The position numbers and the translations under genes are program-made. Below, piece after piece: positions 2,596 to 7,150 of a stretch of 7,150 nucleotides of DNA; position 1 is the first letter of the stretch, and the number at the start of each line of letters is the position of its first letter. Origin of the DNA: a virus (Duplodnaviria > Heunggongvirae > Uroviricota > Caudoviricetes); IMG/VR virus record IMGVR_UViG_2609459794_000001; one strand, 5' to 3'. The notes under the pieces were generated by a model that did not search any database, had not been told where the DNA came from, and worked only from the letters and a program-made list of their open reading frames with translations.

Positions 2596-3975
2596 ATGGC
2601 TACGTGGCAACAGGGTATTAATTCTGGTGGTTTTCTGGCTGGCATCGGTACGCAAAATGAGAATGCGCCAAAGGCAAGCGACATTAACGCAACGCTTGGT
2701 CTGATCCGCGAAAACAATGAACTGGCTCGCTCAGGTGTAAATAACGTTGGCCTGACCGCGTTACGTGGTCTGGCTGGAGTTGCTGATATTTACAATCAGG
2801 AACAGCAACAGAAAGCTATTAGTGAGTTCAATAAGGTTCACGCTGATGCATGGGCTTCTGGTGATCCATCGGGACTATTTAAGTTTGCCCAGGAAAATCC
2901 AGCGTTTGTTGCACAGGCACAACAGGCGTTTTCCGGTCTTAATGATCAGCAACGCAACGATATGGGCGATTTAGCCATGAGGGCTAACGTCGCTCTTTCT
3001 CAGGGGCCGGAAGCCTACAGTAAATTCATTACTGACAACAAGGACAGGTTAAATCGCGTTGGGGCTAATGCTGACTGGATGATTCAGACAGGTATCCAGA
3101 ATCCAGAGCAGCTATCACACATGCTGACTACTATGTCTCTCGGTGCACTTGGGCCAGAAAAGGCGTTTGCTGTTCAGGACAAGATGGCTGGTCGTGAAAT
3201 TGACAGAGGCAGGCTGGCAGAGACAATCCGCAGCAATCAGGCTGGCGAGGCGCTAACAGCACGTGGTCAGAATATCACGATGCGCGGTCAGGATTTATCG
3301 ATGCAGAGAGCATCAATGAAAGGGTCGGTTGGGAATAATGAGCGTACAGTTCAGTTAGCAGATGGCAGAACTGTAACGGTAGGCGGGAAGCTTCACGGCG
3401 CTGGGGCTAATGCGTTCTACGAAGGTATCGACAACGAGGGGAATATGGTTCGCGTCCCTGCTGGCTCTATTGCCGCTCCGGCTACATCGGCAGCAAGCGC
3501 GCAGAATTACGCAATGAAGAAAGATCTTGATGCAATTTCTGGTGCATCAATTGACGATCTTGGCTTCATGACTGGCATTACAGGCTCTTCAGGTTCTCCT
3601 GCTCTTGGTGCAGATATTCGTAGCCGTGCATCTGGTGGTGATCAGAGGAAACTATACAACGCTGCACAGCGAATCCAAGGAAAGATGCAGAATCAGGGCA
3701 TTGCAGCAGCCAGAGACATGGGGGCATCCGGTATCAACACCGTTGCAGAAGCAAAGATGTATTTTCAAGGTATGCCACAGGTTGATTTCTCAAGCCCTGA
3801 AGCACTGCAACAATCAATGCGCGACATTCAGCAATATACCGACAATTACAACCAGCAATATAACGTTAATGTCGGTAATGGAGGGAAGAAATCATCAATG
3901 CAACAGCCGCCTACTCAGCAATCAGCAGGAGGTAGCTACACGTCAAAATCAGGCATTCAATTTACGGTGGAATGA
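2596..3975 (+). CDS. Ejection (DNA transfer) protein, P22 gp20 family, 459 aa
   Basis: N-terminus [22 protein letters not shown]... and the size (459 aa; P22 gp20 is about 470 aa as I recall) fit gp20. SD AAGGGG lies 6 nt upstream of the ATG. It follows the gp7-like gene and overlaps the gp16-like gene start. Confidence 0.8.
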
Positions 3976-5813
3976 TGAAAGTAACTGCAAACGGTAAGAC
4001 ATTTACCTTCCCTGATGGTACGAGCACGGAAGATATTGGCACCGCCATTGATGAGTATTTTGCTGGTCAGGCTGTTCAGCAACAAACAGTTAATCAGGCC
4101 AATAATGAACCAGCACGTGAAGAACCATCATTGATGCAACAAGCTGGCGATTGGCTCACTGGTGGTCAAAGTGCAGGGCAAATTGCAGAACAGGCTGGTC
4201 GTGGTCTGGTAAACATACCATTTGACGTATTGCAGGGTGGCGCAAGTCTGATTAATGCAATCAGTCAGGGGCTTGGTGGGCCAAAAGTATTGGATGATGT
4301 TTATCGTCCAGTAGACAGACCGACAGACCCCTACGCACAAGCAGGTGAAACAATTGGTGGGTATTTAGTTCCAGGAGTTGGAACGGCAGGAAGCATGGCT
4401 ATTGGATCACTGGCAGAGGCCGCAAATCAGAAAGGCGATTTCGCACAAAATGCAGCTAAAAATGCCGGAGTTAACCTTGCCGCTCAGGGTGTTCTTTCCG
4501 CAGCAGCAAAGGGAATAGGGCGTGGAATAACGGCTATAAAAGGTGATATTGCGCCAGAAGTGGCGAAGAAAATTGCCACATCAGAATCGATGGGCGTGAC
4601 ACCAATGACATCTGATGTTATCCCGCCGAAAAATGCTTTCACTCGCGGCCTTACTCAGGATGCCGAGGGGGCTTTGCTCGGAACAGGCTCAAAGAGAGCG
4701 GAGCAATATGCAACGCGTAGTAAGCTGGTAAGCAATTATTTTGACCGTTTTGGTGAGTACAACCCTGATGATGTGGTGAAATCTCTGACCACCACGTTAA
4801 GGGGGCGGAAGGATGCCGCTGGCGCTGTTATCAATGACGTCACCAATAAAATGGGTAATGCCGCAGTTGATACCACAAATACCATGAATGCTCTGAATAC
4901 AGCGATCGCAAGACAGGAACGACTTGGGACGTCTGCCAATCAAAGCCTGCTTACATCCTTGCGTAACCTACGTGAAGAATTAGCAAACCCTGCAACTGAT
5001 TTGGATGTTACGTTTGATCTCTTGCGTCAGCACAGAACAGCATTTAGATCTAATGTTCAGGGAGATGCTATGGTCTTCCCCAACCAGGCAAAAGCAGCTA
5101 CCAATATGGTAGAGAATGCAATGTCAAAAGACCTTCGTAACGCAGTTGCAAAAAACCTCGGTGCATCAGACGCAGCAAAATACCTTAAAGCAAATTCTGA
5201 TTATGCAAACGTTTATAATAAGGTGCTTAATAAAAACATTGCTAACAAACTCAACAAGGCAAGCAGTGAAGCCAGCCCTGAACTTATAAATACCGTTGTA
5301 TTAAGCAGAAAACCATCTGACGTGAAACGAATATGGAGCGCGCTGGATGATAAGGGGAAAGATGCTATGCGTGCAGCTTACGTCAGCAAAATAGCGGAAA
5401 AGGCCGGGGACTCTCCAGCCAAGTTCATCACTGAAGTTAATAAGCTGAAATCTCAGTCAGGCGGTGAAATTTACAACACTATTTTTTCTGGAAAGCACAT
5501 GAAAGAGCTTGATGCTCTTCATGAAGTTCTACAGCAAACAGCAAGGTCAGACACCGCAAATGTAGTAACTCAGACGGGGCAATCGCAAGCCAACAGGATA
5601 AGGACGATTGGCGCAACTGCGACCCTTGGCGTATCAATGGGGCTTGAGGCTGGTTTTGGTGCAATGATGCGCTTGTATGAGTCCAAAGCAGCAAGGAATG
5701 CTCTCTTACGTCTGGCAAACACTAAAGCTGGAACGCCAGCTTATGAAAGAGCGCTAAATCAGGCTGCTACTGCCGTGCGCCCGCTCTTAGCTAACGAAGC
5801 GACCCGGCAGTAG
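3972..5813 (+). CDS. Ejection (DNA transfer) protein, P22 gp16 family, about 612 aa
   Basis: N-terminus (M)[31 protein letters not shown]... and the size (P22 gp16 is about 609 aa as I recall) fit gp16. There are tandem ATG codons at 3972 and 3975; the first overlaps the gp20 stop (ATGA). A GGTGG SD-like motif ends at 3970, which favours the second ATG (3975) as the true start. Confidence 0.8.
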
Positions 5814-5835
5814 CACTGTAAGCCAAGGACGGCAT

Positions 5836-6330
5836 TTATTTTATAGTTTTTATGAATTCTTTATTAAATCCCTTAGCTTCTCCGGGGTATCTTCCAAAGA
5901 CAATTTTTATAAAAACAGAAAAAATAAAGATAGCAACGCTTAACAACAGTTGCAGTATCATTGGAACCCAAAGAACTACAGGCTCTATATTCATGAAACC
6001 AAATATTCTTCCGGCGATCATGGCGAAGTACCACACTGTTATCAGCAAACTTAGTGGCATATGAATTACTGATATTACCAATCCAAGAGCATCAGTAATT
6101 CTATTTTCAAATTTTTCAGGAGAAAACTTTTCTTTAAGGTAATTCAGTGCGCAGGCCTCATTCTCTGGATTTTCAGCATTTTTCCCTATAGCAATAGAAA
6201 TCTCAGATATCCTTGATTCAATTCTTTTGCGTTTAATAAAACTAGAAAAAAAGAACCACGCAATCTGCAACCCTATCCCCATAAATAGAGTTGCGGCAAC
6301 TAGCACAGCGTAACTCATAGAATCAGACAC
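5836..6330 (-). CDS. Small inner-membrane protein with three predicted transmembrane helices; candidate SieA-type superinfection exclusion protein (by position)
   Basis: Minus-strand ORF in a strongly AT-rich segment. Three long hydrophobic stretches are visible ([25 protein letters not shown]; [26 protein letters not shown]; [28 protein letters not shown]) separated by charged loops. It is convergent with gene 16, 22 bp away, at the locus where P22 carries sieA. Start is uncertain: GTG at 6330 has AGAGG 5 nt upstream (preferred), ATG at 6318 has no well-spaced SD, and the track's longest version starts at GTG 6402. Confidence 0.6.
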
Positions 6331-6518
6331 ACCAACCTCTTTAGTTTTTCTAGTTACTTTGTCACGATAGGATATGCGAATTGATAAAACTAAATTGCGC
6401 ACATGATAACTCAGTAATAATTGTTAATGAAAACATGATCACCTATATTGCACAAGGCGAAACAGGAAGCATAATCTGGTTTCATGAGTGTGATCACGTT
6501 TGGGTAAATCAAAGTCAA

Positions 6519-6541
6519 GGTGATGCTGCCAACTTACTGAT
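6519..6541 (+). repeat. IS1 left terminal inverted repeat (IRL)
   Basis: Direct read of GGTGATGCTGCCAACTTACTGAT at the start of the IS1 copy. Confidence 0.85.
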
Positions 6542-6573
6542 TTAGTGTATGATGGTGTTTTTGAGGTGCTCCA

Positions 6574-6849
6574 GTGGCTTCTGTTTCTATCAGCTGTCCC
6601 TCCTGTTCAGCTACTGACGGGGTGGTGCGTAACGGCAAAAGCACTGCCGGACATCAGCGCTATCTCTGCTCTCACTGCCGTAAAACATGGCAACTGCAGT
6701 TCACTTACACCGCTTCTCAACCCGGTACGCACCAGAAAATCATTGATATGGCCATGAATGGCGTTGGATGCCGGGCAACTGCCCGCATTATGGGCGTTGG
6801 CCTCAACACGGTTTTACGTCACTTAAAAAACTCAGTCCGCAGTCGGTAA
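6574..6849 (+). CDS. insA: IS1 InsA (transposition inhibitor / N-terminal part of InsAB' transposase), 91 aa
   Basis: GTG-initiated ORF giving [91 protein letters not shown]. This matches IS1 InsA, including the zinc-finger Cys pairs and helix-turn-helix, with a few substitutions relative to the canonical sequence as I recall it. Confidence 0.92.
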
Positions 6850-7150
6850 CCTCGCGCATACAACCGGGCAGTGATGTGATTGTCTGCGCTGAAATGGACG
6901 AACAGTGGGGCTACGTCGGTGCTAAATCACGTCAGCGCTGGCTGTTTTACGCGTATGACAGGATACGGAGGACAGTTGTGGCGCACGTTTTCGGTGAACG
7001 CACTCTGGCCACACTGGCGCGTCTTCTGAGCCTGCTGTCGGCCTTTGAGGTCGTGGTATGGATGACGGATGGCTGGCCGCTGTATGAATCACGCCTGAAG
7101 GGAAAGCTGCACGTTATCAGCAAGCGTTACACTCAGCGCATTGAGCGACA
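6768..7150 (+). CDS. insB: IS1 InsB reading frame (C-terminal catalytic part of InsAB' transposase), truncated by window end
   Basis: Manual translation of the -1 frame from ATG 6768 gives [64 protein letters not shown]..., matching IS1 InsB. The frame is open to the window end. Not in the ORF track because no stop is reached. Confidence 0.88.
6825..6831 (+). promoter_or_regulatory. IS1 A6C programmed -1 ribosomal frameshift motif (insA to insB fusion site)
   Basis: AAAAAAC read directly at 6825..6831 within TTAAAAAACTC near the end of insA. In IS1 this slippery run is the established site of the -1 frameshift that produces InsAB' transposase. Confidence 0.75.

Follow-up and report, generated by a model that had tools for sequence, protein, structure and literature searches.

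The question that this locus raises is what is encoded by a small, AT-rich gene that faces the ejection gene 16 of a P22-like prophage, and whether its product may still act in the cell that carries it. The gene lies in a stretch of 7,150 nucleotides (IMG/VR record IMGVR_UViG_2609459794_000001, Caudoviricetes), the whole of which is referred to here as the window. A first-pass annotation, made without database searches, recognised the position as that of sieA and suggested that the gene may be a divergent or uncharacterised exclusion allele, of a SieA type that it could not name. Based on our comparisons, we give a probability of about 0.93 to the reading that this is an intact type A sieA in a P22-like prophage disabled by insertion sequences, with a product that would block superinfection by P22-like phages when it is expressed.

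The locus in a P22-like prophage

The window covers that end of a P22-like prophage where the genes of the needle and of the ejection proteins lie, and the host of this prophage is probably E. coli or Shigella. The features of the window are:

1-325: end of an IS3-family element, with orfA on the minus strand from ATG 271
327-734: gene 10 fragment, matching P22 gp10 residues 338-472 only
734-1435: gp26 homologue (tail needle), full-length, 62% identical to P22 gp26
1435-1890: gp14 homologue, full-length, 93-94% identity to P22 (range for gp14 and gp7)
1893-2585: gp7 homologue, full-length, PF25688, 93-94% identity to P22 (range for gp14 and gp7)
2596-3975, plus strand: gene 20 ejection protein, 459 aa, full-length, PF16928 (E 2.5e-117), 82-85% identity to P22 gp20
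3972-5813, plus strand: gene 16 ejection protein, 613 aa, full-length, PHROG 770, 76% amino acid identity to P22 gp16
5814-5835: spacer of 22 bp separating the stop codon of gene 16 from that of the convergent sieA, near-identical to the P22 spacer
5836-6330, minus strand: sieA, assigned to type A, 164 codons and stop (GTG start 6330-6328, stop codon 5838-5836)
5857-5895, minus strand: motif FxRYPxEAxxFNK, codons 146-158, residues 145-157, seen in the translation
6331-6402, minus strand: in-frame upstream extension that gives a 188-aa ORF (PGAP), probably a 5' untranslated leader
6336-6342, minus strand: AAAGAGG, ribosome-binding site placed 5 nt before the GTG start, read from the sequence
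6349-6518, minus strand: upstream region of 170 bp, specific to a lineage of E. coli prophages, which replaces the P22 region holding the annotated sieA promoter
6519-7150, plus strand: left end of IS1, with insA at 6574-6849 (Pfam PF03811, PF12759), running off the window end

The IS3-family element, which we take to resemble IS629/IS1203, abuts gene 10 and truncates it, so the prophage is defective and no stable virions are expected from it. A similar junction between an IS3-family element and gene 10, with a deletion back to the terminase gene, is found in E. coli AH19K002. The tail needle gene is a mosaic allele, since gp26 at 62% identity stands beside gp14 and gp7 at 93-94%. The gene 9/tailspike side is hidden in the window by IS1 and by the window end; in uninterrupted loci that are 99.6% identical, the tailspike gene is found downstream.

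On the minus strand the frame of sieA stays open from 5836 to 6402, and the 164-codon version begins at the GTG at 6330, with no frameshift or internal stop and with its ribosome-binding site kept. The distance from the end of gene 16 to the sieA stop codon is 22 bp, equal to the spacing in P22 (13313 to 13336). The frame and the spacing reported in the first-pass annotation were both verified, and its placement of the ORF at the sieA locus of a P22-like phage agrees with the convergent position in P22 and with a product that falls in the SieA family. A terminator-like minus-strand hairpin at 5725-5742, which lies within gene 16 and downstream of sieA, was considered as a terminator of the cassette and rejected, being absent from P22 and folding not significantly better than shuffled sequences (z -1.8). 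No RNA family was found by an Rfam scan of the whole window.

The GC content of sieA is 34.9% (GC3 30.9%) versus 47-52% in genes 26, 14, 7, 20 and 16, which bears out the earlier remark that its composition is unlike that of the flanking phage genes. Yet the same remark took this composition as a hint of divergence, and here the comparison with P22 goes the other way: P22 sieA is equally low (33.7%, versus 49.9% in P22 gene 16), and no other block of the window is as close to P22 as sieA. When the window and P22 are compared in sliding steps, nucleotide identity is 92-96% over sieA (~5767-6348) and 54-81% in gene 16, and these values point to sieA behaving as a cassette of the mosaic that is conserved, while the ejection genes around it vary more.

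A type A SieA protein

The ORF product was aligned with P22 SieA (BK000583 13336-13830, DAA00996.1) without a single gap, with 151/164 residues identical (92%), 160/164 similar and E 5e-114. Beyond the alignment, the two genes share a length of 164 aa, a GTG start, the ribosome-binding site and the 22-bp spacing, together with three hydrophobic segments, the C-terminal motif and low GC. They differ by 13 mostly conservative substitutions (M/L, I/V, I/L, K/R), one of which, K153N, falls on a position of the conserved motif that varies, and in host lineage, which is of the E. coli or Shigella type for the window and Salmonella for P22. The dN/dS of sieA versus P22 is 0.26, which together with the conservative character of most substitutions indicates purifying selection. 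The product also matches PHROG 7745 ("superinfection exclusion SieA-like") over positions 1-164 of 164, with E 9e-109. At the nucleotide level, a megablast of 5700-6520 against phage genomes returned 45 records, P22 and 44 related phages, with 92.6% identity over 5712-6348; all of them are Salmonella or "Enterobacteria" P22-like phages in which the features at this place are annotated as sieA and gene 16.

No family in Pfam, NCBIfam or PADLOC matches the ORF, but SieA has no model in these three collections, so the misses say nothing against the identification. A sequence search of the PDB with the ORF product found no solved structure.

The type of the protein was assigned by comparison with the known SieA types. 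P22 SieA is type A, while in types B and C the N-terminus is longer by 30-40 residues (Leavitt et al., PMC10883804). As the type B sequence we used the SieA of prophage HS1 in E. coli HS (EcHS_A0321 / WP_000717773.1, 212 aa; 40465-41100 of the stretch compared), whose gene also follows gene 16. The two proteins are 29% identical over 148 residues and homologous over residues 14-159. Their alignment opens at HS1 residue 44 and window residue 14, which leaves the window protein without the N-terminal extension. The HS1 protein carries ~45 additional residues at this end and a reported fourth transmembrane segment (PMC10883804), and the window protein has neither. The motif RYPGEAxxFNK is common to both, and the motif region is aligned in HS1 as well (FNRYPGEARKFNK). 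The exclusion spectrum of the HS1 protein was reported to be the same as that of P22 SieA (PMC10883804). By its sequence, then, the window protein does not group with type B. Type C, found in Providencia, Morganella and Proteus, is set apart by its description, with a ~40-residue N-terminal extension and ~10 extra C-terminal residues; the window protein and P22 SieA are equal in length at both ends, which would place the former outside type C too. Because of the 92% identity to P22 SieA, the motif, the missing extension and the 29% identity to type B, we assign the window protein to type A, the same type as P22. This answers the question of type that the first-pass annotation had left, and does away with its suggestion of a divergent or uncharacterised allele, since the protein is 92% identical to P22 SieA and its exact sequence has already been named.

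The 164-residue product is, by homology, predicted to be an inner-membrane protein with three transmembrane helices. A Kyte-Doolittle profile with a 19-residue window shows three hydrophobic peaks near residues 17, 92 and 131 that are superimposable on those of P22 SieA, in line with the three hydrophobic helices that had been noticed in the first reading. The distribution of charges suggests a short N-terminus facing out, a ~50-residue cytoplasmic loop that starts with KRKR, a short periplasmic turn and a C-terminus, carrying the motif, that would lie in the cytoplasm. This agrees with the literature, where FxRYPxEAxxFNK near the C-terminus is described as common to SieA types A, B and C (residues 145-157 in P22) and is predicted to be cytoplasmic (PMC10883804).

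Similar genes are frequent in E. coli. In a public protein collection the exact 164-aa sequence is found on 314 contigs and the 188-aa form on 796 contigs; both fall in one 90% cluster, whose 300 members come from E. coli, E. fergusonii and Salmonella and mostly bear the name "superinfection exclusion protein A". Loci that are 99.3-99.6% identical across 5700-6519 are present in 11 complete E. coli genomes, and PGAP gives several of them this same label. The type A genes in P22-like prophages of the E. coli strains MB53, YA-1 and ETEC1716 (WP_257188113.1, WP_021538727.1) match the window at this level from the end of gene 16 through sieA and its 170-bp upstream flank, and an identical protein is on record.

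Start codon, upstream flank and IS1

Two start codons are in use for this gene in public records. PGAP calls loci of the window type at 188 aa, from GTG 6402, and 164 aa is the length given to E. coli loci whose upstream sequence differs, so that the annotation at 5836-6402 is inconsistent: PGAP and other pipelines give 164 aa or 188 aa for members of the same 90% cluster. We favour GTG 6330, because its ribosome-binding site and start are conserved with P22, the similarity to P22 ends at 6348, GTG 6402 has no ribosome-binding site and the E. coli loci with other flanks are called at 164 aa; the 188-aa start was rejected on the same grounds. The equivalent site, AAGGAGG, is kept in P22 and in E. 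coli prophages whose sequence further upstream is divergent. The 24-codon upstream extension is not hydrophobic and, judging from these comparisons, is probably not translated. A start at ATG 6318 (codon 5) was also rejected: strain MB53 has ATA in its place, and its distance to the ribosome-binding site is 17 nt. For P22 sieA the start codon is itself uncertain, giving 162 or 164 aa (PMC10883804). A plus-strand ORF of 54 codons (6381-6545), antisense to the sieA leader and running into IS1, has no family match and is probably spurious.

Upstream of the GTG start the similarity to P22 reaches no further than 18 bp, and the sequences beyond this point are unrelated. The annotated P22 sieA promoter is located 31-61 bp upstream of the start, so it is not conserved in the window. 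The P22 neighbour orf59a is also missing, and an IS1 is found 189 bp upstream. P22 and the E. coli strains elppa4 and Res13 share ~32 bp upstream of the start (TGGTATCCTGC...AAGGAGG) and then diverge; the lineage of the window diverges earlier. At 6348/6349, shortly before the sieA ribosome-binding site, lies a mosaic junction that recurs: in P22, elppa4, Res13 and the window lineage, different DNA is joined to the same sieA cassette within ~18-32 bp of the start. The upstream gene at this junction encodes a P63C-domain protein in elppa4, a Panacea-domain protein in Res13 and a 193-aa protein of PHROG 23516 in the window lineage. In MB53 (4849-5430 of the stretch compared) the gene of the 193-aa protein replaces P22 orf59a, between the mnt-like gene and sieA, and it may be another prophage-expressed accessory gene.

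The start of IS1 was set at 6519/6520 by aligning the window with the prophages of E. coli MB53 and YA-1, where the locus is uninterrupted; this places it 28-29 bp beyond the stop of the 193-aa gene. In the uninterrupted relatives sieA is preceded by the gene of the 193-aa hypothetical protein, an mnt-like gene, arc, ant and the tailspike gene, where the window has IS1; the 193-aa gene and the mnt-like Arc-family gene are on the same strand as sieA. The exact IS1/sieA junction was found in none of 5,426 complete E. coli genomes and in no GTDB representative genome; for the terminal 80 bp of the query there are thousands of matching sites in E. coli.

This arrangement raises the option that sieA is intact but silent or strongly reduced in expression, a relic left in a decaying prophage after its promoter or read-through transcription was lost. 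IS1 separates the gene from the same-strand genes of its relatives, the region with the annotated P22 promoter is not conserved and gene 10 is cut by the IS3-family element, so that virions cannot be made. If sieA depended on read-through from upstream, IS1 would cut off its expression; if the promoter lies within the retained 188 bp, expression would be unaffected. A consensus promoter scan of these 188 bp on the minus strand, from the sieA start codon to IS1, found no site of at least 9/12. A looser scan of the same 188 bp gave TTCATT-17-TATCAT at 6431-6403, an 8/12 match and the best promoter-like match on the correct strand, as well as a 9/12 match with a 19-nt spacer. However, the best match at P22 sieA, the annotated promoter included, is equally weak against the consensus, so a weak match in the window is not evidence of absence. 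P22 sieA is, moreover, reported to be transcribed at a low level in lysogens (PMC10883804). The upstream 170 bp are 99.3-99.6% identical to those of the 11 uninterrupted E. coli prophages, and therefore any promoter native to this flank is retained; the open frame and its ribosome-binding site are preserved as well. We consider a silent gene unlikely, and the window copy may be transcribed and active.

Function and biological meaning

What the intact type A gene would do is taken from work on P22. A single chromosomal copy of P22 sieA with 85 bp of upstream DNA is sufficient for exclusion, lowering the plating of P22 by at least 1e7 and lysogenisation by 1e5 (PMC10883804). The P22 protein was found only in the inner-membrane fraction, by fractionation and immunoblot; it abolishes the K+ efflux that accompanies infection and blocks DNA injection (PMC10883804). 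Escape from SieA needs combined changes, G532W and P546S in gp16 with T338I, T341I, A348T and G350D in gp20 (PMC10883804). The authors of that study proposed that SieA disturbs the building or the working of the gp20/gp16 conduit at the inner membrane or, as an alternative, that it occludes a host factor such as YajC (PMC10883804). HK97 gp15, Tuc2009 Sie2009 and TP-J34 Ltp are membrane exclusion proteins of other phages and are discussed beside SieA in that study (PMC10883804). They are not related to SieA in sequence and are directed against long-tailed phages; their likeness to SieA would be an analogy of mechanism only.

Because of the 92% identity, the P22 mechanism can be transferred to the window protein, and with it the predicted inner-membrane localisation, the block of injection and the specificity for P22-like phages. 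Once expressed from the prophage, the window SieA would block the DNA of superinfecting P22-like phages at the inner membrane, most likely by disturbing how the gp20/gp16 ejection-protein conduit assembles or functions. The resident gp20 keeps the equivalents of all four escape sites (T338, T341, A348 and G350). The resident gp16 keeps the equivalent of G532, and the equivalent of P546 is Ala550 (5617-5622 region). Among the gp16 escape sites only G532 was conserved in the five phages compared in the P22 study (PMC10883804), so we give no significance to the resident Ala.

Another hypothesis is that the sieA lineage has become a domesticated host defence gene with rewired regulation, or that its substitutions extend exclusion to phages such as HK620. 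Its basis would be the new 5' flank that begins 18 bp upstream of the start, the adjoining IS1 and the survival of the gene in a defective prophage riddled with insertion sequences, and we consider it improbable. Even less should be expected of a functionally distinct allele, in which the 13 substitutions change the target range, for example towards efficient exclusion of phages with HK620-type ejection proteins; P22 SieA in E. coli works against CUS-3 and only weakly against HK620 (PMC10883804). This allele circulates in E. coli rather than Salmonella and carries K153N inside the motif, but the exclusion spectra of types A and B could not be told apart, with the two proteins only 24% identical (PMC10883804), so that a difference of 8% is unlikely to alter specificity. 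Most of the substitutions are conservative and the dN/dS gives no sign of diversifying selection, so such an allele is highly improbable. Finally, the view that the frame is open by chance, or that it encodes some unrelated membrane protein with a housekeeping role, for which only the lack of a match in Pfam, NCBIfam and PADLOC would speak, can be dismissed. An open frame of 164-188 codons in AT-rich (35% GC) DNA has a chance probability of ~2e-6 to 4e-7; none of 1000 shuffles gave a frame above 159 codons, versus 195 observed; and the product shows near-identity to the experimentally characterised P22 SieA, along with its full-length PHROG match.

The reading of an intact type A sieA makes this an ordinary, catalogued gene that is already known, being a standard copy of the well-studied P22 sieA whose protein is named in hundreds of E. 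coli genomes. The questions of expression and of prophage decay do not make the finding surprising. The locus serves as an example in three respects: an intact type A sieA persists in a prophage that has lost the ability to make virions; its cassette behaves as a mosaic unit and is better conserved than the ejection genes thought to be its targets; and automated annotation of the same gene is split between a 164-aa and a 188-aa start. If the gene is expressed, its host would be protected against P22-like phages, which is the behaviour expected for sieA and which may bear on phage typing and phage therapy for E. coli or Shigella.
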